This document shows, one piece after another, positions 14,454 through 62,418 of a stretch of 64,000 bases of DNA. The stretch covers positions 18,109 through 82,108 of the forward strand of contig JBHELK010000119.1 in the NCBI GenBank assembly GCA_046263085.1. Reading direction: 5' to 3'. The notes beneath the pieces were generated by a model. It did not search any database. It saw nothing but the letters and a program-made list of their open reading frames with translations, and was not told the DNA's origin. This DNA is from Actinomycetota bacterium (GTDB taxonomy: Bacteria; Actinomycetota; UBA4738; JACQTL01). How positions within the stretch are numbered: the stretch's first letter is position 1; every line of letters begins with the position of its first letter. A program made the position numbers and the translations under genes.

Positions 14454-14975
14454 GTGGCCACGACGACGCGATGCGCGCGCTGCGGAACCGAGATCGAGGC
14501 CGGCACCTATCTGTGTCCGAGGTGTCGTGAGGAGGAAGGGCCCTCCGTCACCGGTCCACTCCGGCTGAAGCCGCCGTCCGACCTCGAGGCCCGTGCCGGG
14601 CGCTGGCCCTCGTGGATGTCGAAGCCGAGCCCCGTGCAGTACCACGCGACGGTGATGATCACGGTGTTCCTGGTGCTGGCCGGACTCGCCGCATTCGCCT
14701 TCCTTTCACACCGCGGGGTTGGGCCCTTCACCGGCCGGGCGGTGCGCGTCACCTCCCGGCCCCCGTCGTCCCTCGCCGTGGAGGCCGTGGTCCGCAACCG
14801 GGGCTCGAAAGCCGCCCGCGCGAACTGCAGGATCGTGGCCCTGGTGGACCGCTACGTGGAGTCCTCCGCCACGATCCTCACCGATGAGATCCCCGCCCAC
14901 GGCGCCACCCGCATCCACGACATCCTCAGAGGCGTCGACGCCCCTCCCACCACCGTCGCAGTGAACTGCTCGTAG
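14454..14975 (+). CDS. Hypothetical membrane protein with N-terminal zinc ribbon (CxxC...CxxC) and one TM helix
   Basis: CARCGTEIEAGTYLCPRC followed by a hydrophobic helix. Third-position GC bias is consistent with coding. No family assignment. Confidence 0.45.
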   Translation: MATTTRCARCGTEIEAGTYLCPRCREEEGPSVTGPLRLKPPSDLEARAGRWPSWMSKPSPVQYHATVMITVFLVLAGLAAFAFLSHRGVGPFTGRAVRVTSRPPSSLAVEAVVRNRGSKAARANCRIVALVDRYVESSATILTDEIPAHGATRIHDILRGVDAPPTTVAVNCS

Positions 14976-15035
14976 CTTGGCGGGGGTTGACCCGACCGAG
15001 AGCTCACACCGAGGGTTCTACCGACCGACGACCAG

Positions 15036-15104
15036 GTTGGGGAGGGGTGGCCCCCCGACAACTCAGGTCGGGGTGGGGGTTGGGGAGGGGTTGCCCCTCC
15101 CCAA
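15036..15104. repeat. Two tandem copies of a GGGGAGGGG-NNN-CCCC(T)CCCC hairpin element (the second is perfect: TTGGGGAGGGG-TTG-CCCCTCCCCAA). It lies between convergent genes and probably acts as a bidirectional terminator.
   Basis: Read directly from the sequence at 15036-15056 (imperfect copy) and 15080-15104 (11-bp perfect stem). The same element recurs at 62352-62376. Confidence 0.6.
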
Positions 15105-15105
15105 T

Positions 15106-17913
15106 CTAAACAGCTTCATGTTCGGGGATGAGGCCCTTCGCGTGGGATGAGAGGAAAGCCTGCACGACGCCGGGGTCGAACTGGGTACCGGCGGCCTCGT
15201 GGAGCCGGCGCACGGCCTCCCGGACGGGAAGCGCCTTGCGGTAGGCCCGGTCCGACGTCATGGCGTGCCATGCGTCGCACACCGCCACGATGCGCGCGCC
15301 GAGTGGGATCTCCTCGCCCTTCAGGCCCTGCGGATATCCCTCGCCGTCCCAGCGCTCGTGGCTCGCCTTGATCAGCGGCCGCACGGGCTGCAGGAACTCC
15401 ACCGGCGCCATGATCTGGTCCCCGATCTCGGGATGCCGGCGGATCTCGTCCCACTCGTTGTCGTCGAGCGCGTCGGGCTTGTTGATGATGTTGGTGGAAA
15501 TACCGATCTTCCCGATGTCGTGGAACACCCCGGCCAGCTCGAGGAGCTTCTGCTCGTCGTCGTCCAGGCCCATCTCGGCGCCCACGGTCATGGCCATGTG
15601 AGCGACCTGACGCGCGTGGCCGTGCGTGTAGGAGTCCTTCGCCTCCAGGGCGTTCGCCAGGACCTCGACGGTCTCCATGAACGCCCGCTCCATGTCGGCG
15701 AACCGATGCGCGTTGCCGAGCGCCAGCGATGCCATGTCTGCGACACCCTTGGCGAGCCGGAACGTCCGGGGTGCGATGCGCCAGCCGGGAGGCCCGGTGG
15801 CGATGATCGCGGCGACGCCGTCGGGCTCCCACCGAACCGGTGCGATCAACGTCGGCCCGGGCTCGACGTACAGGCCGATCTGAGCGGCGATGTCGGCCAC
15901 GGCGTCTTCGGCGATGAAGAACGGTTCGTCCAGCGACAGGAGGTAGCGGTCCGCGACGTCCTTCGGCAGGGTCGAGAGGAACATCGAGCGAACCTCGGGC
16001 GCGGGATGGCCGAACTGCGCCGCGCACCGAAAGGCGCCCGAGCGGTCGCGGAGCCATGTCGAGACCTTGACCCCGCCGAGGAGCTCGGAACATGCGCTGG
16101 CGAGAACGTCCACCACGGTTTCCACCTCGCGGCTGCGCGTGAGCATCTGGGAGACGCGAAGGAGCGCGTTGGCGGTCTCCGCCGACTGGCGCTCCTCGTC
16201 GAACAACCTGGCGTTCTCGAGCGCCACGGCGACATGCGACGCGAGCGTCTCCATCACGCGGAGGTCGTCGGGGTCGAACTTGGCGAGCCCGAGCTTCGTC
16301 ACGGCGATCGTGCCGATCACCCGGGACCCGAACTTCAGCGGGACGACGAGCAGAGATTCCTGCAGCTCCGGCGTGCCGGGGACGTCCTCCGCGAACTCGC
16401 ACGCCTCGGCGTCCGGCGCGTAGATCGACTCGCCGGTCTCCGCGACCCGGCCGGTGATCCCCACGCCGACCTCGACGACGAGACCCTCCTCGGTCATCCC
16501 CTCGTATTCCGCGCGATCGCTGTGGAAGGCGACCGGGCGAAGCGTGACGCCGTCGGACTCGAGGAGGTGCACGCGGAACCCGTCGTAGGCGATGAGGTTC
16601 TCGAGCTCGCGCATCAGCACGTCGGCGATGCGCTCGACGTCGAGCATGCGGTTCAGCTTGTTGGAGAAGCTCTGGAGGGCCTTGAGGTGATCGGCCATCC
16701 GCGAGTGCTCCTTGGGGACGGCGCGGTCCCCCGACCACTCGCCGGCCGAGTACGCCGCGGCCCGGTTCTTGCCTCCCGACTTGGCCTGCAGGAGCGCGTA
16801 GTGGGCGCAGGCCAGGAGCTCGCTCGGCCCGTCCGCGTGGGCGGGAGCCTCGGCCACGCCCATGCTGGCGGTGACGCGTGTCCCGGTGCCGTTGAACGAC
16901 GCGGCCTCGATCCGCTGCCGGAGGCGCTCGGCCATCGAGACCGCGTCGAGAGAGGTCGTCCCGGGGAGGATGACGCCGAACTCCTCGCCGCCCACCCGGC
17001 AGATCACGTCCTCCGGCCTGGCCTCGAGCCGAAGGAGCTTGCCGAGCCCCGCCAGCACCCCATCGCCCTCCAGGGGACTGTCGTGCTCGTTGATCCGCCG
17101 GAAGTTGTCGACGTCGATGAGCACGACCGACACCGGCCGGCCCGACCGGGCGGACCGGCGGACCTCTTCGGAGAGTCGCTCCTGGAAATAGCGATGGTTG
17201 TAGAGGCCGGTGAGGTGGTCCGTGACGATCTCCGCCTCGAGTCGAAGGCGGATCTGGGTGTTGTCGAGCGCCAGTGCCGCGAGCTCGCCGAACCGTTTGG
17301 CCAGGTCCAGCTCGGAACCCGAGAACCAGTTGCCACGCCCGATCCGGTACAGGTTCAGCATCCCCTTCAACTCGTCGCGCGCGAGGAGCGGGACGCTGAT
17401 CAGGGACTCGTGGTCGACCTCGTTGCCCGAGAGGCGCATCGTTCTCGGGTCTCGATCCGACTCGTTCGACATCACGGCCTCTCGGTGCTCGGCGCCGAAG
17501 CCGGTGATGCCCTGGCCGAAGGCGATGGAGTGGTCGCGGTAGAACTCGTCGGATCGCGGGTGGCGGACGAAGGTCGGGCGCAGCTCGCGGAGCGCGGGGT
17601 CGGCCTGGAACAGCACGAGCCCGTCGTAGGGGATCAGCGTGGAGACGGCGTCCGCCACCGACTCGAGGAGCCGGGTCAGATCCGACTCGGAGACGAGCAG
17701 CCTGGCGACGTCGGACAGCACCCTGAACGAAAGGTCGGGGTCGACTGCGGACGCCTGCTTGCTCTCGAGCTTGCCTTCCTGTGACAGTAGAGCCGTCCTC
17801 TCGCGTACGCGCTTGCCTGGGGTAGTACTTGTTTCGGTTCGCCGGGCCCGTGCTTGAGCGTGCGGAGGAGGACTTCGTGCCGGGACTTTCGGGAATATCT
17901 GCAGGCGAGACAT
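15106..17913 (-). CDS. Multidomain c-di-GMP turnover protein: GAF - GGDEF (GGEEF) - GAF - GAF - HD-GYP
   Basis: The RVGGEEFGV diguanylate cyclase active-site motif is present. The HD-GYP domain is marked by HGHARQVAHMA...FHDIGKIGI...HERWDGEGYPQGL. Three GAF-like sensor regions are recognisable. The start is ambiguous. The ATG at 17913 overlaps the divergent gene's start, and an alternative in-frame GTG lies at 17721, just before the first GAF domain. Confidence 0.8.
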   Translation of the reverse strand: MSRLQIFPKVPARSPPPHAQARARRTETSTTPGKRVRERTALLSQEGKLESKQASAVDPDLSFRVLSDVARLLVSESDLTRLLESVADAVSTLIPYDGLVLFQADPALRELRPTFVRHPRSDEFYRDHSIAFGQGITGFGAEHREAVMSNESDRDPRTMRLSGNEVDHESLISVPLLARDELKGMLNLYRIGRGNWFSGSELDLAKRFGELAALALDNTQIRLRLEAEIVTDHLTGLYNHRYFQERLSEEVRRSARSGRPVSVVLIDVDNFRRINEHDSPLEGDGVLAGLGKLLRLEARPEDVICRVGGEEFGVILPGTTSLDAVSMAERLRQRIEAASFNGTGTRVTASMGVAEAPAHADGPSELLACAHYALLQAKSGGKNRAAAYSAGEWSGDRAVPKEHSRMADHLKALQSFSNKLNRMLDVERIADVLMRELENLIAYDGFRVHLLESDGVTLRPVAFHSDRAEYEGMTEEGLVVEVGVGITGRVAETGESIYAPDAEACEFAEDVPGTPELQESLLVVPLKFGSRVIGTIAVTKLGLAKFDPDDLRVMETLASHVAVALENARLFDEERQSAETANALLRVSQMLTRSREVETVVDVLASACSELLGGVKVSTWLRDRSGAFRCAAQFGHPAPEVRSMFLSTLPKDVADRYLLSLDEPFFIAEDAVADIAAQIGLYVEPGPTLIAPVRWEPDGVAAIIATGPPGWRIAPRTFRLAKGVADMASLALGNAHRFADMERAFMETVEVLANALEAKDSYTHGHARQVAHMAMTVGAEMGLDDDEQKLLELAGVFHDIGKIGISTNIINKPDALDDNEWDEIRRHPEIGDQIMAPVEFLQPVRPLIKASHERWDGEGYPQGLKGEEIPLGARIVAVCDAWHAMTSDRAYRKALPVREAVRRLHEAAGTQFDPGVVQAFLSSHAKGLIPEHEAV

Positions 17914-23772: not shown

Positions 23773-23851
23773 GAGCGGCCATCGTCGCCGAGGGGCTCGT
23801 GTCCGTCAATCTCCTTGACCAGATTTCGAAGTGGCGTAATGAATGCGGGCG

Positions 23852-24775
23852 TCAGATGTCGCCGAGATCGGCGCACTTCTCGCGGATGCCCTCGGCTGCC
23901 TCGCGGAGCCGCGAGAGCTCCTGCTCGGAGAGATCGAGCTCGACGATCTCCTCGACGCCCTTCTTCCCGAGCTTCGCCGGCACGCCGACGTAGACCCCGT
24001 CGATGCCGAACTGGCCGGTCGTCCAGGCGCAGACCGGGAGGACCTCCTTCGTGTCGCCGGCGATGGCGTTCACCATCTGCGCGATCGATGCGCTGGGGGC
24101 GTAATACGCGCTCCCCTTCTTCAGCATCGCGACGATCTCGGCGCCGGCGTCACGGGTGCGCTGGTACAGCCGCTCCAGCGTGTCGTCGTCAACGAGCTCC
24201 GTGAGCGGCTTGCCCTGGACGGTGGCGTGACCCGGCAGCGGCACCATCGACTCCCCGTGCGAGCCGAGGGTCATGGCTTCCACGCTGCTCGGCGAGACGT
24301 TCAGCTCCTCGGCGATGAAGTACCGGAGCCGGCTGGAATCGAGCACGCCGGCCATCCCCATCACTCGGTTGCGGTCGAACCCACTGGTCTCCGCCGCCAG
24401 ATACGTCATCTCGTCCAGGGGGTTCGTGACCACGATGATGATGGCGTCGGGCGAGTGTTGCTTGATGTTCTGCACGACGTCTTGGACGATGCCGGCGTTC
24501 TTCTCGAGGAGATCCATCCTGCTCATGCCCGGTTGCCGGGGAAGGCCGGCCGTGATCACGACGACGTCGGAGCCGCCCGTGTCGGCGTAGTCATTCGTCC
24601 CGGTGATGGCGGGCTCGAAACCCTCGACCGGAGAGGACTCCTTCATGTCGAGGGCGACGCCCTGCGGCAGGCCCTCCACGATGTCGATGAGCACGACCTC
24701 CGCGAGGCCTTTCTGGACCACCCGCATGGCTGTGGTCGCTCCCACGAACCCGCTTCCGACGACGGTGACTCGCAT
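23852..24775 (-). CDS. mdh: Malate dehydrogenase (LDH-like family)
   Basis: VTVVGSGFVGATTA Rossmann motif, ...ITAGLPRQPGMSRMDL..., catalytic His region and full-length similarity to the family. An AAGGAG RBS precedes the ATG. Confidence 0.9.
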   Translation of the reverse strand: MRVTVVGSGFVGATTAMRVVQKGLAEVVLIDIVEGLPQGVALDMKESSPVEGFEPAITGTNDYADTGGSDVVVITAGLPRQPGMSRMDLLEKNAGIVQDVVQNIKQHSPDAIIIVVTNPLDEMTYLAAETSGFDRNRVMGMAGVLDSSRLRYFIAEELNVSPSSVEAMTLGSHGESMVPLPGHATVQGKPLTELVDDDTLERLYQRTRDAGAEIVAMLKKGSAYYAPSASIAQMVNAIAGDTKEVLPVCAWTTGQFGIDGVYVGVPAKLGKKGVEEIVELDLSEQELSRLREAAEGIREKCADLGDI

Positions 24776-24943
24776 CTCCGATCAGCTCCTTGGTTCGGCG
24801 GTTGGCGGCATCCTACCGAGAGGAGCCAGGCACTCGGTCCCGGGCTCGTCGGAGGCAGCCCCGGGACGGTGCCATGCAGCGATTCCTCGTCGACTGTGAG
24901 CGCGGTCACAGACGGGATGAGTCCTCCTCTCTATTCTCGCGAC

Positions 24944-26119
24944 ATGAGCACGTTGCGGTCCGTTCTCGATGAGATGCGCATGGAGGATCCGTCGCGAATG
25001 AGCGAGACCGAGCTCGAGGAAGGGCTGCTGGAGCGCGAGCGCGCGGCGAACGTGTTGCTCGCGGACCGGGCTCGGTGGCTGGCGGAAGTCGAACGCCGGC
25101 AGACGTTCCGCAAGGACGGATTCCTCACCCCCGAGGCGTGGCTCTCGGCTCGGACCAATCTCTCGTACTCCGATGCGAAGCGTCAGGTGAGGACCGCGCG
25201 AGCGCTTGACCGGATGCCGGCCACACGAGAGGCGCTGGCCGGCGGCGAGGTGTCCTCCTCCACCGTTCGCGTGCTGGTCCATGCGCAGGAGACGAATCCA
25301 GAGGAGTTTCCGGAGGCCGAGGCGATGCTGCTCGACGCCGCCCGCACCAGTTCTCCAAAGGAACTGGCATCCACCGTGACGTCGTGGCGTATCGCCGCTG
25401 ACGAGGGTTCCGGCGAACGCGAGGAGCGCATGTTCCGACGCCGTGCCATGACGGTCCTGCCGACCCTCGAGGGGATGGTACGGATGGACGGGAATCTCGA
25501 CCCCGAATCGGGTCAGACCGTCATCACAGCGATCCGGGCCTACATCGATGCCGAGGTTCGCGCATCACGAGACACGAGAAGCCCGATGCAGCGGCGCGCC
25601 GACGCGATCACGGGGATATGCCGCTGGTGGCTCGACTCATCGGATCGCCCAACAGTGGCGGGAGAGCGACCGCATCTGACCGTCGTCGTCGACGCCGAGG
25701 CCCTCGAGACGGGGATCGGACGCTGTGAGTTCGAGGACACTGGTCCGACGTCACCGGAGACAGCCGCCCGTATCGCCTGCGATTCGACGATCACCCGACT
25801 CGTGATGAAGGGCCGGTCGATGCCGATCGACGTGGGTCGGGCCACGCCTGTGATCCCCGGGCCGATGCGGAAGGCGCTGGTGGCTCGGGACAACGGATGC
25901 CGCTTTCCTGGATGCGGCCTCCCGGCGCCCTGGTGCGACGGCCACCACATCGTCCACCTGGCCCACGGGGGCGTGACCGCCCTCTCGAATCTCGTGCTGC
26001 TCTGCCGTCGCCACCATCGGTTGATCCACCAGCGCGCCTTCTCGGTCAGGATGATCGGTGAACAACCGGTGTTCTTCCGCGCTGACGGAACTCAACTGCA
26101 GGAGCGGCGGCCTCCGTAG
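24944..26119 (+). CDS. DUF222 domain HNH endonuclease (REP13E12-like family)
   Basis: The N-terminal DUF222-like region is followed by the HNH motif CRFPGCGLPAPWCDGHHIVHLAHGGVTALSNLVLLCRRHH. The first two-thirds of the ORF-track ORF (from 23843) is antisense to mdh and was trimmed. Confidence 0.8.
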   Translation: MSTLRSVLDEMRMEDPSRMSETELEEGLLERERAANVLLADRARWLAEVERRQTFRKDGFLTPEAWLSARTNLSYSDAKRQVRTARALDRMPATREALAGGEVSSSTVRVLVHAQETNPEEFPEAEAMLLDAARTSSPKELASTVTSWRIAADEGSGEREERMFRRRAMTVLPTLEGMVRMDGNLDPESGQTVITAIRAYIDAEVRASRDTRSPMQRRADAITGICRWWLDSSDRPTVAGERPHLTVVVDAEALETGIGRCEFEDTGPTSPETAARIACDSTITRLVMKGRSMPIDVGRATPVIPGPMRKALVARDNGCRFPGCGLPAPWCDGHHIVHLAHGGVTALSNLVLLCRRHHRLIHQRAFSVRMIGEQPVFFRADGTQLQERRPP

Positions 26120-28233: not shown

Positions 28234-29730
28234 TCAGCCCGTGACGCACTGAGCCTCGTACCCGGGCGGAACGGGGTTCCGGGCACAGGGGTTCGGGGGG
28301 TCGAAGAGCAGCGCGTCCCCGAGGTTCGAGTTCCCCTCCAGGAACCCGATCTTCGAGACGTCGGCGGCCCCTTCACCCGTGTAGCGCAGGATGTACAGCC
28401 CGTTGCGCACGTCGACCACGTAGATCAGCCCGTCCTTGATCACCGGGTAGGACCACATGACGACCTTGTCCTGCCCGGCCGACAGCGCAGGGTCCTCCTG
28501 CAGGACGGCGGGCAGCGGGTCGGGCGAGTACACCCCGGTCTGGATCGGATGCGTGGGGTCCTTCAGCGAGATGGCCTGGAGCCCGCCGGAATGCCAGGTG
28601 ATGAAAGCGAGGTCCGGCGTGAGTGTTGGGTTGTGCGACGCCCAGCTCGACGACACGCGTGGGGGGTCGGTGGTGCAGAAGTTCGGATCGTTCTGGGGCA
28701 GCTTGTACTCCGCCACCACCTTCGGCTTGGTCGGGTCGGAGATGTCGATCATCCGCACCCATCCCCACGGACAGCCGTGGCCGCCACCGTTCACGGCCTG
28801 AAGCAGCACCCCGTACACCTCGTCGGTGACGAGCGCGTACGGCTGGCCGTAGAGCTTGATCGCGCTGTGGGCGCCGGGTCCCGGCCAGCTCACGCGGTTC
28901 GCCGCCGGCGTGACCAGCCGCGTGCGCGGGCTGGCGACGTCGTTGATGTACTCCGAGGTGTCGGTGACGAAGAAACCGCCGGTGAGATGGGCCATGTACC
29001 CGCGGAACCCGTCGTTGGACAGGGAAAGGGAGTGGAGGTTGCCGGAGGGGACCATCCTCGACTGCGAGCCCAGCTCACGGAAGGTGCCCTGACGGGCTCC
29101 CGAGATGTCGGTGACGAGCAGACGCCCGGTCGCCGGGGAGGAGATGAACATCAGCGCGCGGTCGGGGATGAACGGGTCCGCCCACAGGTAGAACTCGTGC
29201 GGGCTCGCCGACGGCATGTACGTCGACACGAGCTTGGGAGCCGCGGCGTTGGCCCCGGAGATGTCGTAGAAGCGGAAGTTGTCGTTGACGATCCGCGGCG
29301 AGCACTCGTGGATGATGTCGCTGCAGTTGGACCCCAGGTTCTCGACGATCAGCAGGTTCTGCTGGGGCCAGATGCGGAGCTCTCGCGACGTCTCTCCCTC
29401 ATTGGCCTCGTTCGGAGGCCCGATCTCGTTGACCACGTGCGGTGACGCCGGGTCGGAGACGTCCACGACCATGACGCCAGCGTGATTCAGGTTGAGGGTC
29501 GTCCCCCACGGCTTCGCGTCGGTCCGGCTGCCCACGTAGGCGTAGTTGCCCTTCACGGCGAGCGCCGCGTTCATGCCGCGGTTCATGAGCGGCACGTGGC
29601 CCACGAGCTGGAAGTTTTGGGCAAGCTCGAGCGGGCCGAGGTGGACGGGCGACGTCGGGGCTGGAACCGCAGGGAGAGCTAGGGCGAGCACCGTGACCAG
29701 GGCCGGCAGGAACAGCCGTCGAAGCGCCAT
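28234..29730 (-). CDS. Secreted beta-propeller protein with LVIVD-type repeats
   Basis: Signal peptide [25 protein letters not shown]. Repeated hhVVDVSDPxxP / hLVTDISG / [10 protein letters not shown] blades match the LVIVD repeat (PF08309). The upstream ORF extension was trimmed. Confidence 0.75.
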
Positions 29731-29786
29731 GCCTCTCTGGTTCGCTGCCGGCTTCCCCTTTCCTTCCGGCGCTCGCGACCGTCTGT

Positions 29787-29800
29787 TGTGCAGGTGCACA
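29787..29800. promoter_or_regulatory. Palindromic putative operator, site 1: TGTGCAGGTGCACA
   Basis: Perfect inverted repeat in the divergent intergenic region, 57 nt upstream of the minus-strand gene start at 29730 and 109 nt upstream of the plus-strand gene start at 29909. Confidence 0.6.
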
Positions 29801-29829
29801 GTTCTGCGCCACACGAACACTCGCTGACT

Positions 29830-29843
29830 TGTGCATGTGCACA
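29830..29843. promoter_or_regulatory. Palindromic putative operator, site 2: TGTGCATGTGCACA
   Basis: Second perfect copy lies 43 bp from site 1 in the same divergent promoter region. Confidence 0.6.
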
Positions 29844-29908
29844 GAGGAATGCGCACTTCGCTCCGCGTAGTCCATCTCGAGACATCCATCCGCCATACAG
29901 GAGAGACC

Positions 29909-31597
29909 ATGCGCGCACGTCTGTTCGCCACCCTCGCCGTATCCGTCCTGGCCGCCCTGCTCGCCATCCCGTCAGGGACCGTGTCCGCCAGCAGCTCCGG
30001 GAACGCCGTCGTGTCCTCCACCGGGGACATCCGGTTCGTGGCCAACATCCCCTATCCGGTGGGAACCGACGAGGAGTTCGCCACGTTCAACGTGACGAAG
30101 CTCTCGAACGGCGCCACCGGCGACCCGGTCTGCCAGACGAACCCGGACGGCTCGTGCGCGACCGACGCGGCCGGGAAGATCGTCTACCAGACCGAGGACC
30201 GCGACTTCGCTTTCGTGGGAAGCGAGAGCGTGAACGGGTTCGTCATCGACATCACCGACCCGGAGAACCCCGTCTCTGTGGCGTCCCTGCCCTGCAGGGC
30301 AAGCCAGAACGACATCCAGATCTGGCACAACATCCTGCTGCAGTCCCAGGACGGCACGGGCGGGACGTGCCACAAGCCGTCCGGCGGGACGCAGACCCAG
30401 GTCACGATCGGCTTCTCCGACATCTCCGACCCCCGCAACCCCAGGTTCCTGGGCAAGCTCACCGAGGCGCGCGGCGCCCACAACGCCACGGTGCACCCCA
30501 CCCAGCCCATCGTCTACATCTCAAACTCCGATCTTCCGTCGACGTCCGACGTGATCCACATCTGGGACTTCAGCAACCCGGCCGCGCCGGTCAAGGTCAA
30601 GGACTGGAACCCCACCTCGGGCTCGGTGTTCTCCCCCCACGACATCACGTTCAACGCCTCCGGGACGAGGGCATACGTCGCCTCCGTCGATCACACCGAG
30701 ATCCTCGATAGCACGGACCCGAAGAACCCCACCTTGATCTCCACGATCTACAACGAGGGAGTGTCGATCTCCCACCAGTCCGACCCCACCCCCGACGGCA
30801 AGTTCCTGCTGGTCTCCGACGAGCTGGGAGGCGGCGGCGCACCCACGGTCTCCCCCGGTGGGAGCGTCCACGTCTACGACATCCGCAACGAGCTGCGCCC
30901 GGTGAAGGTGGGACTCATCAACGAGGACCTCACCGGGGCCGGCCACGTGTCCACCGCGCACGTCTTCCGGATCAACCCGGACGGCCGGACCATGGCCATC
31001 GCCTGGTACCAGGACGGAGTGCACGTGTTCGACTTCTCCGACATCCACGGGCCCAACCTGTACGGCTCCGGGAACGCGACCGGCGTGGGGGCGCGGACCA
31101 TCGCCTCGATCCTGATGCAGAACGCCAACACATGGTCCGCCAAGATGTGGCAGGACCGCCACCCCGGCTACGTGTTCGCCAATGACATCAACCGCGGCTT
31201 CGACGTCTTCTACGTGCCGGAGCTCGGCCCCGGCTTCCTCTCCACCGGGACGATCCACGCGCCCATCGCGGACGGCCAGGCGCCCAGCCTCACCGAGATC
31301 GAGTTCCAGACCCGCTGCGAGTACTCCCCCGTCTCCCAGGGTCTCGACGGCTACGTGTTCGACCTTCGCGGAACCGGTGACGGCAACCACACCAACTCGG
31401 TGAAGGGCACGTCGGCGGCAGCGCACAACCTGGACCTGACCTTCTACGACGCCGCGTGCAAGCTGCTCACCGGCAAGAACCTGACCGCCGGGAACGACCC
31501 GTCGGGGACCATCCCGGCAGGAGCGAAGTACGCGGTGGCCGACCTGGTGGGTGGGGCCCAGACACGCTTCGTGGCCACCACCGCGGTGGCCGCCTAG
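29909..31597 (+). CDS. Secreted beta-propeller protein (LVIVD-like repeats)
   Basis: Start at MRARLFATLAVSVLAALLAIPSG (signal peptide) with a CAGGAGAGACC RBS. Blades such as FVIDITDPENP, IHIWDFSNPAAP and VHVYDIRNELRP are recognisable. Confidence 0.7.
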   Translation: MRARLFATLAVSVLAALLAIPSGTVSASSSGNAVVSSTGDIRFVANIPYPVGTDEEFATFNVTKLSNGATGDPVCQTNPDGSCATDAAGKIVYQTEDRDFAFVGSESVNGFVIDITDPENPVSVASLPCRASQNDIQIWHNILLQSQDGTGGTCHKPSGGTQTQVTIGFSDISDPRNPRFLGKLTEARGAHNATVHPTQPIVYISNSDLPSTSDVIHIWDFSNPAAPVKVKDWNPTSGSVFSPHDITFNASGTRAYVASVDHTEILDSTDPKNPTLISTIYNEGVSISHQSDPTPDGKFLLVSDELGGGGAPTVSPGGSVHVYDIRNELRPVKVGLINEDLTGAGHVSTAHVFRINPDGRTMAIAWYQDGVHVFDFSDIHGPNLYGSGNATGVGARTIASILMQNANTWSAKMWQDRHPGYVFANDINRGFDVFYVPELGPGFLSTGTIHAPIADGQAPSLTEIEFQTRCEYSPVSQGLDGYVFDLRGTGDGNHTNSVKGTSAAAHNLDLTFYDAACKLLTGKNLTAGNDPSGTIPAGAKYAVADLVGGAQTRFVATTAVAA

Positions 31598-35028: not shown

Positions 35029-36435
35029 CTAGGTGTTCCTGCCGGTGGCGGCCCTGCGGCACAGGTACCGCTCAGCGGCGGCAACAGGGTCGTTGACTCC
35101 GAGTTTGGCCAGCCAGGATGCGCGGAACTGCGCCTTCGACGGCACGAGGTTCTTCGACGGGTCGTACTTCAGGATGTCGACGCCGCGCTCGTAGTCGACC
35201 GAGTAGATGTAGTTCTTGTCGATCCAGTACGCAGACGACGTGGAGCCCACGACGGGCTGGAAGAACCCCAGCTGCTTGATCTTCCCGGTCTTGCCGTCGA
35301 CGTCGAAGATGCGTGTGCCGTGCTCGTACCATCCGTTCGCGGTGACGATGTGGTCGTGGGTGCTGTTGTCGGAGCTGATGTCGAACCAGTGTCCGGAGCA
35401 TCCCAGGCCGTTCACCTCGGGGTTGCCGTCCTGGTAGTTGCCCTGGACGGGGCGGAAGACGTCGATCGGCTTGAACGGCTTGGCTCCGGGCTGATCGAAG
35501 TCGCGCAAGGAGTAGGTGGTGAACGGACCGCTCCCCGAGTTGCACGAAGGCGAGAAGTTCGTCTCGCCCTCGCCGAGCAGCAGCTCGCCGGGCCGGAGGT
35601 TCGGATCGGCCTTGTCCTCGTCGGTGATCCGCGGCTTGTACTCGGCCGCGTAGGGCCGGAGGTTGTTGTGCTGGTAGGCCGTCTTCTTGACGCCCATCTG
35701 CGAGGCGTCGCTGTGCGCCACCTCAACCGGTTGAGCCGGATCCGAAACGTTCAGCGCGTAGATCGGCGTCGTGTCGGTCCAGATGAGTCCGGTGGCGTCG
35801 CGGGTCACGTGATGACCGGTGCGGCCGCCGGCGGCGCTCTTCCACTCCCCCACGTACGTCGGGTTGGCCTTGTCGCGGAGGTCGTAGATCTTGCCCTCCG
35901 ACCCGTAGGCCCAGTCGCACGTCGGGCTCGCGTCGACGCACTCGATCGTGTGGTTACCCTGGTGCGCCGTCTCCTTCCCCTCGACCGTCAGGCTCACGAG
36001 CCCGCCGGGCAGGTCCTGCACGTGGATGACGATGAGATAGAGGATCCCCTCGAAGTCGCTCATCAGGACCCAATGGCCGTCGGCGGAGACCGCCACGTCC
36101 TCGTTCTCCCAGTTGTGGGTGTAGAGCGCGCCCATCAGCAGCGGAACGGCCGGGTTCGTCACGTTGTAGACGCTCAGGCCCTTCGCCGAGCTCACGTACA
36201 GGCGCTTCACGGCGCCGACCTGGACCACCCGCGCGCTGACCCCGGGGGATTCGTTGGCCAGCGTCGCCACGTAGCTGATGTTCGGCGACATGAAGCCGCC
36301 CGGGCCCGGGTCGATGTAGGTCAGGGGAGCCGGCTGGGCGCCCGCGGGACTCAGGGGACCGGCCTGCGTGGACGGCCCTGCGACCACGCCGAACAGGACA
36401 AGAGCGGGGATCAGCGCGAGTGCGCGTCGCAGCAC
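35029..36435 (-). CDS. Secreted beta-propeller protein (LVIVD-like)
   Basis: GTG start at 36435, preceded by AAGGAGGA. This yields the signal peptide (M)LRRALALIPALVLFGVVAGPSTQA. Blades include VYNVTNPAVP, IYDLRDKANP and LNVSDPAQP. The gene is 12 nt upstream of the next propeller gene and is operonic with it. Confidence 0.7.
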   Translation of the reverse strand: MLRRALALIPALVLFGVVAGPSTQAGPLSPAGAQPAPLTYIDPGPGGFMSPNISYVATLANESPGVSARVVQVGAVKRLYVSSAKGLSVYNVTNPAVPLLMGALYTHNWENEDVAVSADGHWVLMSDFEGILYLIVIHVQDLPGGLVSLTVEGKETAHQGNHTIECVDASPTCDWAYGSEGKIYDLRDKANPTYVGEWKSAAGGRTGHHVTRDATGLIWTDTTPIYALNVSDPAQPVEVAHSDASQMGVKKTAYQHNNLRPYAAEYKPRITDEDKADPNLRPGELLLGEGETNFSPSCNSGSGPFTTYSLRDFDQPGAKPFKPIDVFRPVQGNYQDGNPEVNGLGCSGHWFDISSDNSTHDHIVTANGWYEHGTRIFDVDGKTGKIKQLGFFQPVVGSTSSAYWIDKNYIYSVDYERGVDILKYDPSKNLVPSKAQFRASWLAKLGVNDPVAAAERYLCRRAATGRNT

Positions 36436-36521
36436 GGGAGTCCTCCTTGTTCGATGTCGATGAAGCTTCTGAGGGGCTGACCTATCGATTCGCAGGTGCG
36501 GGGCCGAATCCTCCCTGCCAT

Positions 36522-38609
36522 CTAGGAGGGCCCCACGGACGAGAAGCCGCAGCTCGTGCCGAAGCAAGCCCGGGCGAAGACCACGGAACCGGAGGGAACC
36601 GCGCCCACGGCGCCGGTGAAGGATCCGTCGGCGGCAACGACCGCCGGGGTGCTGTAGCTCACCTGAGCGGGATCCGTCCCGGCCGGCGCCACGCCGAGGC
36701 TGACGGTGCGGTCTGGGATGGCGTACGAGGTCCAGGTGGCGCCGTCGGCCATGTTGCCGACCGTCTGCCCGCCGACCGTCGTCCCGAAGCTCGTCACGCC
36801 CGCGCTGTATGCGGCGTAGATCGAGGGGGTGGTGACCCCGGTGGTCTGGGTCGTGGAGATCACCGCCCCGGGCTTGATGTCCGGGGCGAAGGACGCGCCG
36901 ATCGGGACGCGCACGGTGATGGTGTTCGAGGCGGTGTCGAACGAGCCGTCGAGCCACGCGAGGTGGGAACAGTTGTTGACGGCGACGAGGGTTGCGCAGT
37001 TGCCGCGGAGCCGGAACGACCGGCCGGCGTGGGTGACGGCTCCCTCGGGGTCGTCCACCGTGCCGGTGCTGCCGACGTTCGAGAGCTTCGCCTGCACCTG
37101 GTACTGCTTGCCGTTCACGAGGAACGCCCACGTGTACACGAATGTCTCCGGCGCCGTCGCCGGCACCGTCGGGTCCGGACCCGGCAGCTTGCTCACCTTC
37201 CAACGGAACTGGAGGTACGGGAGTTGGGCCTCCGGCTGGGAAACGCTCGCCTCGGTGAGGTCCGTACCGTCCTGCGCCCCAGTGGTGGGCTCGAGGGCGC
37301 CGTCGCCTGCGGGGTCGGTTGCCGCCACCACCGGCGCGGTCTCGCCGGCGAACCCGGCGGTCCCGCTCACATTCCCCGCGGCCGATGCGACGAGCGAGGT
37401 GACGCCGTTGGCGGCTGCCGGATCGCGGGGCAGGGGCCCGTTCCACTTCAGGACGTCGAACCCTCGCGTGTAGTCGACCACGTAGACCACGCGGTCCGTG
37501 ACCCAGTGCGCCGCGGACGCCCAGCTGGCGAAGGACTGGAAGAACCCCACGTTGGTGAGCTTGCCGTTCCCGTTCACGTAGAAGAACCGGGTTCCGTGGT
37601 CGTAGTACGCCTGCGCGAAGATCCCGCCGTTGTGGAAGGACGGGCTCGCCTCGAGCCAGTGCGCAGAGCACCCGGCGCCGTCCGCGGGGGTGTTCCCGTC
37701 GAGCATGTAGCCGTTCCTGGTCTGCCACCGGTCGGCCCTGCTGTACGTGCCGCCCTGCCAGCCGGTCATGTCGTAGACGTACGTCGAACCGTTCCCTGTG
37801 CCGTTGGCGCCGCAGCGCCCCGTCAGGTTGGTTTCCGTTCCCACGAGCATGAACCGGTCGGTGGCCTGGTTCGCCCAGCTCGTAGAGTGCATGTATTCGC
37901 TGGTCTTCTGCCCTGCGCCCATGCACGCGAGCTTCTTGGGATGGGCCGGGTCGGTGGTGTCGAGGATGGCGCCCGGGCAGTTCGCGCCGCTCCCGGAGGA
38001 CACGACGACGATGCCGGGGGCGTCCTCGCGGACGTCGTGGCCCGCGGACACACCGGCGAGGGTTGCCCAGTTCCCGACGAGGGCCGGCTTCGTGGGGTCG
38101 TGGAGATCGATGATGTTGCCGCTCGAGCCGTACAGGTAGGTGCAGTCCGCCACGCAGGTCATGGTGTGCTGCGCCAGGCCCGAGACGGAGGCGACCTCGA
38201 CGGGCTTCGTCTTGTCGGTGACGTCGTAGATGTGCAGGAAGTTCTGTCCCGGGCCCACGATCGGGACGTTCCCGGTCTGCGAGTACACGAGGATCTTGCC
38301 GTTCGTGGCGACGTCCTCGTTCTCGTACTGGCTCGGGACCGGCGTGATGCTCACGAGCTGTGGGTCCTCGGGGTTCGAGGCGTCGTAGATGGAGATGCTC
38401 CGCCAGCTGGTGATGTAGAAGTAATGCCCCACGAGCTTGGCTCCGGTGGCGCCGTACACCTCGAATGGCACGAACCGAACGTGCTCGACCCACGACGACG
38501 CAACGCCCTGCGCCGGCGCGTCCGGCCCCGCCCGCCCGATGCCGGGTGACATCACGGCGACGGTGAGCGAAAGCGACACGACCGTCGCGAGGATCCTGAG
38601 CTTCTTCAT
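36522..38609 (-). CDS. Secreted LVIVD beta-propeller protein with a C-terminal ~300 aa conserved module of unknown function ('ACFGxxCG' module)
   Basis: Signal peptide MKKLRILATVVSLSLTVAV. The N-terminal propeller carries blades ISIYDASNPEDP, LHIYDVTDKTKP, IIDLHDPTKP and ILDTTDPAHP. The C-terminal module reads QYQVQAKLSNV...RLRGNCA...LAWLDGSFD...VRVPIGASFAPDIKPGAV...ARACFGTSCG. Confidence 0.75.
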   Translation of the reverse strand: MKKLRILATVVSLSLTVAVMSPGIGRAGPDAPAQGVASSWVEHVRFVPFEVYGATGAKLVGHYFYITSWRSISIYDASNPEDPQLVSITPVPSQYENEDVATNGKILVYSQTGNVPIVGPGQNFLHIYDVTDKTKPVEVASVSGLAQHTMTCVADCTYLYGSSGNIIDLHDPTKPALVGNWATLAGVSAGHDVREDAPGIVVVSSGSGANCPGAILDTTDPAHPKKLACMGAGQKTSEYMHSTSWANQATDRFMLVGTETNLTGRCGANGTGNGSTYVYDMTGWQGGTYSRADRWQTRNGYMLDGNTPADGAGCSAHWLEASPSFHNGGIFAQAYYDHGTRFFYVNGNGKLTNVGFFQSFASWASAAHWVTDRVVYVVDYTRGFDVLKWNGPLPRDPAAANGVTSLVASAAGNVSGTAGFAGETAPVVAATDPAGDGALEPTTGAQDGTDLTEASVSQPEAQLPYLQFRWKVSKLPGPDPTVPATAPETFVYTWAFLVNGKQYQVQAKLSNVGSTGTVDDPEGAVTHAGRSFRLRGNCATLVAVNNCSHLAWLDGSFDTASNTITVRVPIGASFAPDIKPGAVISTTQTTGVTTPSIYAAYSAGVTSFGTTVGGQTVGNMADGATWTSYAIPDRTVSLGVAPAGTDPAQVSYSTPAVVAADGSFTGAVGAVPSGSVVFARACFGTSCGFSSVGPS

Positions 38610-38628
38610 CTCATGCCTTCCTGTTCGA

Positions 38629-40683
38629 TCAGGGCGCGACCGAGCGGTATCCGCAGCTCGCGCCGAAGCAGGCCTGGGCGAACACCTGGGAACCTGCCGG
38701 GACGCTCGGCACCTGGCCGGTGAAGGTCCCGTCGTCGTTCAGCGTGACCGGGATGGTGTAGTCGACCGTCGATGGATCCGTCCCGGCGGGAGCGACGCCC
38801 AGCATCACGGTGGCCTTCGGGATCGTGTACTGATCCCAGTCGATGTCGTCCGCGACGGTGGTGTTCGTCACCAGCACCGAGTTCGCGGCGTACAGCGTCG
38901 GCAGGCTGGCCGACGGCGTGAGGACCGCGCCGGGCTTGATGTCGGGGGCGTACGAGGCGCCGACCGGCACGCGGACCATGATGGTCTTGTTCGGGACGTC
39001 GATCGAGCCGTCGAGCCACGCGAGCGTCGGGCAGTTGTTGAGCACCCCGACCACCGCGCAGTTCCCGCGGAGCCGGAAGGAACGGCCGAGCCTCGTCACG
39101 GGGCTCGTGGGGTCGTCGGCGAGGACGGTGCTGGCGATGTTCTCGACCTTGGCCTGCACGGCGTAGTCCTTGTTGTTCGCCTTGAAGTACCAGTTGTAGG
39201 AGGTGGTCTCGGGGATCGCCCCGGACGTGGTGTCCGGCAGCGGGAGGTTCGTCACCTTGAACCGAAGCTCCACGTACGGCAGTTGCGCCTGCGGCTGTGA
39301 GAGGCTCGCCTCCACGAGGTCGGCGCCGGCCGCGTCGGAGACCTGCGCAACCCCTGGGCCGTCACCCACGGCGTCGGTGAAGGTGGTCGGGCTCGTCTCG
39401 CCGGCGAAGGTGGCGGTACCCGTGACCGTGGCCCCGCTGCCCGAGGCCGTCGCCACGAGCTGGGTCACGGCGTTGTCGGCCGCCGCGTCGTGCGGCAGGG
39501 GCCCGTTGTACTTCAGGACGTCGATGCCCCTCGTGTAGTCCACCGCGTACACGACACGGTCGGTGATCCAGTGCACTGCCGACGTCGACCCGCCGAACGG
39601 GGTGAAGAACCCGACGGGTGTGAGCTTGCCGTTGCCGTTGACGTAGAAGAACCGGGTCCCGTGCTCGTAGTAGCCCTGGGCGAAGATGCCGCCGTTGTGG
39701 AAGGAGGGCGCCGCCTCCAGCCAGTGAGCGGAGCATCCGAGCACGTTCACCGGGGGGTTCCCGTCGAACAGGTAGCCGTTCTTGCCCTGCATGCGGTCCG
39801 TGCGGTGGTACGTGCCGCTCTCCCACCCGGTGGTGTCGTAGACGTAGGTGGCGCCGTTGCCGGTGGCGTTCGCGCCGCACCGGGTCTTCTCGTTCGTCTC
39901 CGAGCCGACCAGCATGAATCGGTCGGTGGCGTTGTTCGGCCACGTTTCCGAGTGCATGTACTCGGACGTCCTCTGGGTGCTGGCGATGCACGAGAGCTTC
40001 ACCGGGTTCACCGGGTCCGTGACGTCGAGGACGGCGCCCGGACAGTTCTGTCCGCTGCCCGAGGAGACGACCACGATCCCCGGCGCGTCCTCACGGACGT
40101 CGTGGCCCCCGGAGACGCCCGCCTTCTGGGCCCAGTTGCCGACGAGCGCCGGCTTCGTGGGGTCCCGCAGGTCGATGATGTTGCCGCTCGAGCCGTAGAG
40201 GTAGGTGCAGTCGGCGACGCACGTCATCGTGTGCTGAGCGATGCCGGCGACGTTTGCGATCATGACAGGGTTCGCCTTGTCGGTGACGTCGTAGATCCGC
40301 AGGTGGTTCGACCCGCCGCCGGCGAGGGATGCGCTGGTCTCGCTGAAGACCAGGACCTTGCCGTTCGTGGCGACATCCTCGTTCTCGAACCGGTGCGGGT
40401 CGCTCGGGTCCTCCTTGGCGAAGGGCACGATGCTCACGAGCTGAGGGTCCTCGGGGGTCGACGTGTCGTAGATCGACAATGACCTCCACCCCGTGACGTA
40501 GTAGTAGTGGCCGACGAGGCGGGCGCCGGTGGCGCCGTACACCTCGAACGGAACGAACTTCACGTGCTCGACCAGGGTCGAGGTGACGCCCTGGGCCGGG
40601 GCATCCGGGCCGGCCGCCACGACCTGCGAGCCGGTGGGTACCGCCACGAGAGCGAGGGTGAGGATCAGCGCCAGTCGTCGCAT
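38629..40683 (-). CDS. Secreted LVIVD beta-propeller protein with the C-terminal 'ACFGxxCG' module (tandem paralog of 36522-38609)
   Basis: Signal peptide MRRLALILTLALVAVPTG. The protein is collinear with, and highly similar to, the downstream paralog throughout. C-terminus ...AQACFGASCGYRSVAP. Confidence 0.75.
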   Translation of the reverse strand: MRRLALILTLALVAVPTGSQVVAAGPDAPAQGVTSTLVEHVKFVPFEVYGATGARLVGHYYYVTGWRSLSIYDTSTPEDPQLVSIVPFAKEDPSDPHRFENEDVATNGKVLVFSETSASLAGGGSNHLRIYDVTDKANPVMIANVAGIAQHTMTCVADCTYLYGSSGNIIDLRDPTKPALVGNWAQKAGVSGGHDVREDAPGIVVVSSGSGQNCPGAVLDVTDPVNPVKLSCIASTQRTSEYMHSETWPNNATDRFMLVGSETNEKTRCGANATGNGATYVYDTTGWESGTYHRTDRMQGKNGYLFDGNPPVNVLGCSAHWLEAAPSFHNGGIFAQGYYEHGTRFFYVNGNGKLTPVGFFTPFGGSTSAVHWITDRVVYAVDYTRGIDVLKYNGPLPHDAAADNAVTQLVATASGSGATVTGTATFAGETSPTTFTDAVGDGPGVAQVSDAAGADLVEASLSQPQAQLPYVELRFKVTNLPLPDTTSGAIPETTSYNWYFKANNKDYAVQAKVENIASTVLADDPTSPVTRLGRSFRLRGNCAVVGVLNNCPTLAWLDGSIDVPNKTIMVRVPVGASYAPDIKPGAVLTPSASLPTLYAANSVLVTNTTVADDIDWDQYTIPKATVMLGVAPAGTDPSTVDYTIPVTLNDDGTFTGQVPSVPAGSQVFAQACFGASCGYRSVAP

Positions 40684-40710
40684 CTACGTTTCTCCTGTCG
40701 TCCTGGTCGT

Positions 40711-42279
40711 CTATGCGACGACGTTCTGGGTCACGGTCACGGGCTGGTAGGCGTCGTCGCCGGCCCAGGTCGCGGTGACCTGGTGAGGGCCGGCGGGAAG
40801 AGCAAGCGGAGCTGAGAACGTGCCGTCCGCCGCGGTGGTCGCGGTGACCGACGTGCTCCCGGAGCTCACCGTCAGGGTGATCCCGGCGAGGGGCTTGTTG
40901 ACCCACCCGAGGTAGGTCCACACGGCGTAGCGGTCGAGCTTGCCGGTGATGGCCCCGCCGGTGGCGGCCGCGTTCACCTGGAGGCGGGCCACCTTCTTCG
41001 GCATCGCTCCGGTGTAGGTGAAGACGTCCATCCCGCGGGTGATGTCCTGCGTGAAGACGTACCGGTCGAATTTCGGATCGTCGAAGCGGGTCCACTTCGA
41101 GGACCACGTGTTGGCGCCCTCCGGCAGGAAGTTCCCAACCGTGTTGCCCCACGTGGTGGGCCCGCCGAACGTCGTGCCCTTGAACTCCTGGTACTCACCG
41201 CCGGAGGCCTTCGTCGGGAACTGCATGTCGGCGACGAACGTGCCCGCCGAGTAATGGGCCACCGACATCAGGAACCGCTCCGCCTGGAACGTGAGCACGT
41301 GGATCGTGCAGTTGCCCCACTGCCGCTGCGCGGTGGGGTCGGTGAGGCTGTAGAACGGCGCGAACCAGTGCCCGATCTCCTTCGGGTTGCTCAGGCTCGC
41401 CCCCGGGATGTACTTGCCGCTGATGTCGTAGATGTGGGCGCCGCCGCCCGGGCAGGTTTCATTGGTGAGGCCGCCGCCGCGCTCGTCGGTGAGGACCACG
41501 AACGATGAGTCCGGCGAGGGGTCGGCCTGGTGCCCGATCGAGACGTTCCCGTCGTGGACGTTCTTGATGATGGTGGGCTTCGCCGGGTCCGAGAGGTCGA
41601 CGATCTGCAGGTTGGTGCTCGACTGAGGGCACGCCGAGTAGCCGATCGTCGGGTTGTTCGGATCGACCGTGAGGTCGTGGCCACAGATCTGCGGCGCCTG
41701 CCCCAGGACCTTCGGGTTCCTCGCATCCGAGTAGTCGACGATGTAGGTGGGGAGCAGCGTGTAGAAGTACTGGTCGTTGATGATCGTCACGTTGTGGGCG
41801 CCGTCCACGCCCTCGAAGTGCGACAGCAGCTGCGGATTGGCCACATCGGTGATGTCCACGATGTCCACACCGATACCGTTCGTCCCGCCACCGTGGTCGA
41901 CGGTCGAACCGAGGTTGTCGGTGGCGAGCAGCACGATGTTGCGCCGCGGGTTCACCTGGATGTCGCCCTCCCAGTTGAATCCTGGATCGACGAAAGCGCC
42001 GGCGATCAGCGGCAGGTCCGGATTGGTGATGTCGATGATGTTGAACCCGTGGCCCATGTCGCCGACCACGGCGTAGCGCTTCAGCGCCCCGTCGGACAGC
42101 TTGCGCTCGAAGAACTCGATGTCGCTGCCGACATCGGCCGGGACGTTCCACTTCCAGTCCATGTTGTGCTTGCCCAGGGCACCGGCGGCGGGAATGACGG
42201 CCCCGGCCGGCTGGCCGGCGAACGTCGCAGTCAGGATGGCCGCTGCGACGAATGCGAGTGCTGTCTTCCTCAAGGTCAT
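40711..42279 (-). CDS. Secreted LVIVD beta-propeller protein with C-terminal Ig-like/big domain
   Basis: Signal peptide MTLRKTALAFVAAAILTATFAG. Blades include FNIIDITNPDLP, VDIVDITDVANP, LQIVDLSDPAKP and AHIYDISGK. The C-terminus has a Thr-rich beta domain. Confidence 0.75.
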   Translation of the reverse strand: MTLRKTALAFVAAAILTATFAGQPAGAVIPAAGALGKHNMDWKWNVPADVGSDIEFFERKLSDGALKRYAVVGDMGHGFNIIDITNPDLPLIAGAFVDPGFNWEGDIQVNPRRNIVLLATDNLGSTVDHGGGTNGIGVDIVDITDVANPQLLSHFEGVDGAHNVTIINDQYFYTLLPTYIVDYSDARNPKVLGQAPQICGHDLTVDPNNPTIGYSACPQSSTNLQIVDLSDPAKPTIIKNVHDGNVSIGHQADPSPDSSFVVLTDERGGGLTNETCPGGGAHIYDISGKYIPGASLSNPKEIGHWFAPFYSLTDPTAQRQWGNCTIHVLTFQAERFLMSVAHYSAGTFVADMQFPTKASGGEYQEFKGTTFGGPTTWGNTVGNFLPEGANTWSSKWTRFDDPKFDRYVFTQDITRGMDVFTYTGAMPKKVARLQVNAAATGGAITGKLDRYAVWTYLGWVNKPLAGITLTVSSGSTSVTATTAADGTFSAPLALPAGPHQVTATWAGDDAYQPVTVTQNVVA

Positions 42280-42288
42280 TCTCCGGTC

Positions 42289-45764: not shown

Positions 45765-45829
45765 GACGGGCTCCTCCCAAAGACACGACCGTCCCGGGGA
45801 CCTTTCGAGGGGAACGGGCCGGCTACCTT

Positions 45830-45843
45830 TGTGCAAGTGCACA
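45830..45843. promoter_or_regulatory. Palindromic putative operator, site 3: TGTGCAAGTGCACA (extended form TTGTGCA-AG-TGCACAA)
   Basis: Perfect 16-bp inverted repeat 66 nt upstream of the GTG at 45764. This GTG heads the apparent seven-gene minus-strand operon running 45764 to 33881. Confidence 0.6.
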
Positions 45844-45856
45844 AGCGAGGGCCGGC

Positions 45857-58373: not shown

Positions 58374-58445
58374 CCAGGGAACAGAATCCGCTCAGGCCTA
58401 CGATCCGTGGGCGGACCGGGGAATCACTACCAGGGAGGAGAGCGG

Positions 58446-58948: not shown

Positions 58949-58974
58949 GAGGGCCCCGCTTCGGCGGGGCCCTC
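58949..58974. terminator. Hairpin GAGGGCCCCGC-TTCG-GCGGGGCCCTC followed by TT, between convergent genes
   Basis: 11-bp perfect GC-rich stem with a TTCG tetraloop, read from the sequence. It sits 24 nt after the stop at 58925. Confidence 0.55.
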
Positions 58975-62346: not shown

Positions 62347-62351
62347 TCGTA

Positions 62352-62386: not shown

Positions 62387-62418
62387 GGCGTCCGTGCTCA
62401 CGACCCCATCCCCGTCCC

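Follow-up and report, generated by a model that had tools for sequence, protein, structure and literature searches.

Two hairpins in the DNA of an uncultured actinobacterium are copies of one interspersed, multi-copy repeat. The family is intergenic, its copies have sharp boundaries, and they often stand in tandem with decayed copies of themselves. We consider the hairpins to be, more likely than not, a REP-like interspersed repeat of a single uncultured lineage of soil Actinomycetota, one that spreads non-autonomously and acts mainly through its RNA hairpin. To our knowledge, short interspersed palindromes are poorly catalogued outside the Proteobacteria.

The window, by which we mean the whole 64-kb stretch of DNA analysed, has a G+C content of about 70%. 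The initial annotation had pointed to a near-identical pair of 25-nt hairpins 47 kb apart, and both are present: TTGGGGAGGGG-TTG-CCCCTCCCCAA at 15080-15104 and TTGGGGAGGGG-CTA-CCCCTCCCCAA at 62352-62376. Each consists of an 11-bp stem and a 3-nt loop. The stem is not pure G/C, as had been proposed; it contains eight G-C and three A-T pairs, and what stands out instead is the split between an arm made up of purines alone and an arm of pyrimidines alone. The annotation was right that an additional arm or degenerate copy stands beside each hairpin: site 1 has a partial copy at 15037-15056 and a G-arm at 15070-15079, and site 2 has an arm at 62377-62386. When site 1 on the plus strand is aligned to site 2 on the minus strand, the likeness reaches beyond the palindrome. 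The oriented unit reads C-GGGG(T/A)GGGGG-TT-GGGGAGGGG-T(T/A)G-CCCCTCCCC-AAT, with 35 of 37 positions identical between the sites. It is thus a hairpin with a third G-arm 5' of the purine arm, which places four G-tracts on one strand (G4-N-G5-TT-G4-A-G4).

The gene contexts are also as first described. Site 1 separates a 173-aa gene on the plus strand from a convergent GGDEF/GAF/HD-GYP gene on the minus strand; site 2 is flanked by a gene for a B12-binding-domain protein and by sucC, both on the minus strand. The features of site 1 are these:

14454-14975, plus strand: 173-aa gene.
14976-15105, no strand assigned: intergenic block of 130 nt with the intact unit and one or more decayed copies; missing in relatives.
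15037-15056, plus strand: decayed partial copy, TTGGGGAGGGG-TGG-CCCCCC, with its 3' arm mutated and without the third G-arm (nhmmer 15035-15054, E=6e-4).
15069-15105, plus strand: intact 37-nt unit, C-GGGGTGGGGG-TT-GGGGAGGGG-TTG-CCCCTCCCC-AAT (nhmmer 15065-15111, E=1.1e-15).
15070-15079, plus strand: third G-arm, GGGGTGGGGG.
15070-15090, plus strand: potential quadruplex of four G-tracts, G4-T-G5-TT-G4-A-G4 (sequence and ViennaRNA G4 model).
15106-15108, minus strand: stop codon TAG of the GGDEF/GAF/HD-GYP gene (Pfam HD_5, GGDEF, GAF).

Those of site 2 are:

61204-62346, minus strand: sucC (Pfam).
62347-62418, minus strand: 72-nt block from the stop codon of the B12-binding gene (62419-62421) to the sucC ATG (62344-62346); missing in relatives.
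62351-62387, minus strand: intact unit, C-GGGGAGGGGG-TT-GGGGAGGGG-TAG-CCCCTCCCC-AAT (nhmmer 62391-62345, E=7.3e-15).
62352-62376, minus strand: hairpin.
62366-62386, minus strand: potential quadruplex of four G-tracts, on the sense strand of the operon.
62377-62386, minus strand: third arm, GGGGAGGGGG on this strand (CCCCCTCCCC on the forward strand), which contains GGAGG.

Could these be ordinary G/C hairpins that evolved independently and look alike by chance, or an artefact of assembly? The bare hairpin is certainly widespread: GGGGAGGGG-N3-5-CCCCTCCCC has at least 120 matches in genome contigs, where single occurrences are common across widely differing phyla, and many among the matches listed resemble ordinary terminators. 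But the two sites agree over the whole oriented unit. With up to two mismatches allowed, GGGGAGGGG-NNN-CCCCTCCCC matches the 64-kb window at the two hairpin sites only, and 100 dinucleotide-preserving shuffles gave no match, a chance expectation of none. The exact 9-mers GGGGAGGGG and CCCCTCCCC occur three times each in the 64 kb, always at the two hairpin sites. An nhmmer profile built from 40 metagenome copies recovers two full units (E ~1e-15) and one partial copy in the window, and the unit recurs on dozens of independent assemblies. Shuffles, pairwise identity, metagenome copies and profile matches together rule out chance or an assembly artefact, to which we give next to no credence. No Rfam family matched in the window.

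A metagenome scan for the exact flanked hairpin (22 specified bases) found it on 74 stretches, which fall into two classes. Class A comprises 47 distinct copies, including the two in the window, on soil contigs of 67-74% G+C that are attributed to Actinomycetota. Their consensus is gcC-GGGGTGGGGG-TT-GGGGAGGGG-TaG-CCCCTCCCC-AAT, with sharp boundaries and a core of about 39 nt, in which the hairpin (TTGGGGAGGGG-NNG-CCCCTCCCCAA) has the G-arm on its 5' side and a T on its 3' side. Conservation of the class A stem is biased, since the copies were collected by an exact stem match; the third G-arm is nevertheless present in 39 of the 44 evaluable copies, though it lay outside the search pattern, and 44 of 47 copies have G as the last base of the loop. 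Tandem or decayed neighbours accompany L134, L140 (an inverted pair), L144, L154, L158, L167, L182, L196 and window site 1. All class A copies lie between frame-supported ORFs. Viral contigs contained no match to the repeat. The proposal of a repeat family therefore stands: 74 stretches carry the exact flanked hairpin, 47 distinct copies share the full oriented 39-nt unit, and both sites in the window are inserted, as described below.

Several lines of evidence bear on the host. Proteins named 'Actinomycetota bacterium' occur in the window and beside class A copies, and several copies come from one assembly project, WNGH01. One group of copies adjoins an FtsZ gene whose named relatives are in Actinomycetota MAGs. 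Five diverged genomes keep an intact core at this ftsZ locus, an observation biased by exact-match collection, and the DNA to the left of the core has diverged or has gained or lost copies. A separate feature of the locus begins immediately after the stop codon of ftsZ: a G/C-rich region of some 130 nt, which in the five genomes is more conserved than the third-codon positions of ftsZ itself (L131, L134 at about 310-450, L135, L144 and L173; more weakly, L204:11153-11350 and L205:11147-11380). It contains CGAGGCGCCCTTCCCCCGCCTCGGGCGAGACGA, flanked by GGGGGGCGGGGGGG and CCCCGCCCCCC, and its central part persists in more distant Actinomycetota. We regard it as a candidate structured 3' UTR or small RNA.

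What did the gene junctions look like without the repeat? For site 2 we compared the closest relatives of sucC (84-88% amino-acid identity). In these (L121, L122 and L123) the sucC start comes immediately after the stop codon of the B12-binding gene, as TAG-ATG or TAA-GTG, so that 0 nt take the place of the 72 nt in the window. For site 1 we compared orthologues of the 173-aa gene (66-80% identity) that keep the convergent HD-GYP neighbour. In L199-L203 and the P0122 contig the two genes are -4 to 11 nt apart, versus 130 nt in the window. The unit profile has no match in about 86 kb from relatives, comprising these junction relatives and two further related genomes. By comparison with these sequences, both window copies are insertions into gene junctions that are closed in relatives. 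The C-terminus of the HD-GYP protein is altered as well, reading ...GLIPEHEAV* in the window and ...GLIHS* in L199. We also note that at L199:3126-3129 and L200:635-638 the convergent stop codons overlap in the palindrome CTAG, which is TAG on both strands, exactly where the 130-nt insert sits.

How the unit moves is less apparent. At the two pairs of filled and empty sites there is no target-site duplication, nor any terminal inverted repeat beyond the internal palindrome, and the left boundary of the inserted DNA varies. The alternative label of a MITE, offered with that of REP in the initial annotation, calls for terminal repeats and target duplication and so finds no footing at either pair. 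A Pfam scan of overlapping candidate ORFs, which covered the window on either side of the ORFs 58407-58925, 58991-60331 and sucD (60328-61200), found no transposase or RAYT domain. With no such domain, target duplication or terminal inverted repeat, mobility is deduced solely from the insertion polymorphism. The unit would spread as a non-autonomous element, and the obvious candidate for its mobilization would be a hairpin-recognising single-strand transposase of the RAYT or IS200-IS605 type. In REP systems the cognate RAYT gene, which encodes a Y1 transposase, is typically flanked by REPs.

The only mobile-element-like gene in the window is an ORF at 23843-26119 on the plus strand with a DUF222 match (PF02720, E=9.5e-30) at about 25.0-25.9 kb; we take DUF222 to be the family of the mycobacterial 13E12 repeat and HNH proteins. 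This ORF sits where the G+C content falls from about 0.71 to about 0.66. Further on, 28234-30048 and 35029-46331 on the minus strand hold a run of large ORFs with only weak matches to LVIVD-repeat, Ig-like or DUF7133 domains or with no Pfam match, in a stretch where G+C is lower (0.65-0.69) and the GC skew positive. Their products may be paralogues of one another, secreted or exposed at the cell surface.

The unit is real but is not a new kind of element: it is an Actinomycetota counterpart of published G-rich hairpin and quadruplex repeats from methanogens and E. coli. Our literature search found no match to the extended motif; the architecture itself is published. The closest likeness is to the rPQS of Methanomicrobiaceae, in which a G-run, one nucleotide, a G-run and 3-5 nt precede GGGGAGGGGG, a loop and CCCCCTCCCC (PMC8044849, Front Microbiol 2021), as in the example oligonucleotide CTGGGGGGTGGGGACCGGGGAGGGGGCTCGCCCCCTCCCC (PMC8044849). 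Both repeats are interspersed, multi-copy and strictly intergenic, often between tail-to-tail genes. The G-tracks agree, with G4-T/A-G5-TT-G4-A-G4 at both of our sites and in the family consensus, as does the C-track, with CCCCTCCCC following a 3-nt loop. The central spacer, however, is 2 nt (TT) here instead of the published 3-5 nt, and the hairpin loop here is 3 nt. The rPQS are reported to have no orientation preference and to lie about 300 nt from the nearest CDS, and the paper describes no insertion polymorphism for them (PMC8044849), whereas our unit usually abuts a stop or start codon, has a marginal 2:1 trend in orientation and shows two insertion polymorphisms. There is neither a shared host range nor a sign of common descent: the hosts are Actinomycetota and archaea, and the flanks and loops differ. 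The likeness to the archaeal rPQS may be convergent.

The E. coli HPG1 and HPG2 repeats have been described as 'G-quadruplex-hairpin-duplex switch' motifs (Kaplan et al., NAR 2016, PMC5100583); they are conserved, multi-copy and intergenic, and most of them lie between operons or close to 3' UTRs. They too have a purine/pyrimidine hairpin, CCCTCTCCC-TTT-GGGAGAGGG, beside G-runs, CC-GGGGTGAGGG, and in them hairpin and G4 compete (PMC5100583). They differ in having G-tracts of three instead of four, in their reversed polarity, the G-arm of the hairpin being the 3' one and the extra arm lying 3' of it, and in sequence and host. The REP and BIME elements of Proteobacteria are likewise short multi-copy extragenic palindromes, single or clustered and often just past stop codons. 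Our unit has the size of a REP palindrome (a stem-loop of about 20-40 nt) and clusters in a BIME-like manner, its clusters being mostly direct tandems. It departs from REPs in its homopurine and homopyrimidine arms and its third arm, and no RAYT gene was found among the scanned ORFs of the window. With intrinsic terminators it shares a stable G/C-rich stem-loop directly downstream of genes, including between convergent genes; unlike them it has no U/T tract, is conserved in sequence across unrelated loci, and has copies within an operon and upstream of starts.

The position of the copies relative to genes suggests where the unit acts. Genes beside class A copies were called with a frame test (high GC3, and GC1 greater than GC2) in a crude home-made caller. 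Of the independent loci, 26 have a convergent gene on the C-tract side and 13 a co-directional one, a bias that weakened to marginal significance (binomial p=0.053) after redundant loci were collapsed. At 20 of these 39 loci the stop codon of that gene lies within 15 nt of the unit, mostly at 0-7 nt, though insertion into very short spacers, and not selection, may account in part for such short distances. With the stops of convergent genes this close by, the commonest layout on the mRNA is a stop codon, 0-7 nt, the hairpin and a C-rich tail. On the mRNA of the HD-GYP gene at site 1, stop codon and hairpin are 1 nt apart. In a minority of loci, site 2 among them, the sense strand is the G-strand and a start codon follows the unit at a distance of 4-30 nt; for one third of the family copies, the start of a co-directional gene comes just downstream. 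A reading of the unit as an operator or regulon site was rejected, as the flanking genes are functionally unrelated and the unit sits after stop codons.

Is the unit a dedicated factor-independent terminator, halting RNA polymerase that arrives from either of two convergent genes? The initial annotation had suggested that the hairpin doubles as a terminator, and the setting of site 1 and the frequency of stop codons within 15 nt, at about half of the family loci, favour the idea. Canonical terminators, a hairpin plus a T-run, are not enriched in the window (7 found against about 15 expected). A second tail-less G/C hairpin also lies between convergent genes, at 58949-58974: a perfect 11-bp stem, GAGGGCCCCGC-TTCG-GCGGGGCCCTC, with no T-run, unique and not a repeat, in the 65-nt gap between the convergent ORFs 58407-58925 (plus strand) and 58991-60331 (minus strand). 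Given this example and the lack of enrichment of canonical ones, tail-less hairpins may be a local way of ending transcripts. But neither strand at either site has a T-run after the hairpin (the tails read AATCTAAACA, AACCCCCACC and AATACGAATG), and a terminator scan of 14700-15400 and 62000-62700 came back empty. Mycobacterial RNA polymerase is said (by Czyz et al., in 2014) to need a U-tract for intrinsic termination in vitro. Moreover, site 2 lies inside the operon of the B12-binding gene, sucC and sucD: the sucC start is 5 nt away, and the TCA-cycle genes sucCD would be silenced if termination here were efficient. The copies just upstream of co-directional starts also count against the idea, and relatives function without the unit. 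With no T-run and a copy within an operon, the claim of a terminator is unsupported in the form in which it was made, and we think a dedicated terminator unlikely.

Some role at the 3' end is plausible all the same, since many copies stand 0-7 nt past a stop codon and canonical terminators are not enriched here. REPs act as barriers at RNA 3' ends. The best-supported function, we infer from this analogy, is that of a REP-like repeat whose RNA hairpin would be a 3'-end barrier. The hairpin was to be checked by a folding prediction, and this gave -21.5 kcal/mol for the hairpin alone as RNA. So stable a structure (about -22 kcal/mol) could hold up exonucleases coming from the 3' end, or make RNA polymerase pause where transcripts end. 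[quoted passage not shown] 2015 given in PMC12306157. At site 1 the decayed copy is itself predicted to be able to pair with the intact unit's C-arm, giving a fold of -52.9 kcal/mol (z=-4.1).

The G-rich strand offers further possibilities. As RNA, the 40-nt units fold with energies from -22.0 (C-strand) to -26.8 kcal/mol (G-strand), and the DNA hairpin has about -13 (-13.2). In the ViennaRNA G4 model the G-strand forms a quadruplex of -40.8 kcal/mol, and the C-strand forms the hairpin only. The quadruplex potential claimed from the G-runs thus holds for one strand of the full unit, with four G-tracts, and fails for the hairpin alone, which has two; it depends on the third G-arm. At site 1 the last two tracts of the quadruplex candidate double as the hairpin's 5' arm. 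The third arm has a register (GGGG-W-GGGG, with an extra G and a TT turn) that would also set G.G-C together with T.A-T or A.A-T triplets exactly over the duplex, and that so fits a purine-motif triplex as well as a G4. The four tracts may therefore allow a competing quadruplex or purine-motif triplex, as the archaeal analogue does in vitro.

Whether the unit was selected as a structural switch, moving among a hairpin, an intramolecular purine-motif triplex and a four-tier G-quadruplex so as to regulate transcription, replication or translation, is another matter, and modelling and comparison leave us inclined against it. The third arm is kept at most evaluable copies despite not having been searched for, yet it may merely belong to the sequence that is copied. 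No base other than T or A stands at its centre, in this family or among the listed matches in unrelated lineages, and among 121 listed hairpins from unrelated genomes an arm stands beside the G-arm in 16, as against 4 in the mirror arrangement; many of these cross-lineage cases, however, are phylogenetically clustered. The predicted G4 (-40.8) beats the hairpin (-26.8). The archaeal rPQS oligonucleotides formed a hairpin, an antiparallel triplex and, after annealing in K+, a G4 (PMC8044849), a conversion from triplex or hairpin that a switch would use. But at about two thirds of the loci the nearest gene transcribes the C-rich strand, which is incapable of forming a G4, and the stems are invariant and so leave no covariation to test. 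A selected switch seems to us distinctly improbable, and the REP-like RNA hairpin the better account.

Site 2 merits attention in its own right, for here the insertion has parted two genes of an operon. The 380-aa product of sucC is 100% identical to the NCBI MAG protein P0001 ('Actinomycetota bacterium', prefix ABR600), which confirms that translation starts at the ATG in the window. The foot of the hairpin is 5 nt upstream of this ATG, with no Shine-Dalgarno sequence between them. When the hairpin is folded, the GGAGG of the third arm may be brought to about 8 nt from the ATG, where it would replace the lost stop-start coupling. Hairpin-bridged Shine-Dalgarno sites are known from phage T4 genes. 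The centre of the third arm at site 2 is A; the exact arm GGGGTGGGGG, with T at its centre, occurs in 26 of the 47 family copies, and A is found at one other copy only (L127). The change to A may be adaptive, giving sucC a ribosome-binding site after the insertion removed the coupling.

The other class from the metagenome scan, class B, consists of 27 distinct copies. The contigs that carry them have a G+C content of 38-57% and a very low coding density. Here the shared core is embedded in a different, longer composite repeat. Its order is a GAGGCGCC-GAAG-GCGCC hairpin, GGGGTGGGGT, a TTGGGGAGGGG-TGT-CCCCTCCCCAA hairpin, a GGGGAGGGGG...CCCCCTCCCC hairpin and a T-run (L129, L133, L136, L139, L142, L146, L149, L153, L157, L162, L168, L170, L171, L174, L176, L178, L181, L184, L185, L190, L191, L193, L194 and L197). 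Given the low G+C content and the very few long ORFs, the source is probably a eukaryote or other non-bacterial genome. Vicinamibacteria and 'Marinacidobacterium', for their part, have one conserved locus per genome at which a three-arm G/C module is followed by a nested hairpin (L015:4821-4981, L016:3925-4085, L028:1112-1272 and L055:12-172; L002, L005 and L076 on the other strand). The outer stem of the nested hairpin shows three apparently compensatory pair changes (GATGGCG/CGCCATC against GGAGGTG/CACCTCC), and no Rfam family was found at these loci. We regard the Vicinamibacteria locus as a candidate unannotated structured RNA.

The occurrence of similar modules in the Methanomicrobiaceae rPQS, the Actinomycetota family, the Vicinamibacteria locus and the low-GC, gene-poor composite repeat raises the idea that the three-arm module itself (G4-W-G4, a short turn, G4-A-G4, a loop, C4-T-C4) is a device whose origin or spread, in more than one domain of life, is a repeated event. 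We hold this to be very doubtful. If it were true, something more than a generic hairpin would be at work, namely a specific mechanism common to all of them: a triplex or G4 fold might be recognised by a structure-specific nuclease or transposase that copies it, or the module might be a strand-specific roadblock to polymerase at gene ends.

The family opens no new category of element. It adds a third lineage, distant from the other two but almost identical in the sequence of the repeat, to those known to have hairpin-or-G-quadruplex repeats, and so poses the choice between convergence and a shared copying mechanism. For annotation, it flags junctions where insertion rewrote translation coupling, as at sucC, or a C-terminus, as in the HD-GYP protein. 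Finally, the two clean pairs of filled and empty sites indicate that such units can wedge themselves between the stop and start codons of central-metabolism genes, and that the operon survives.
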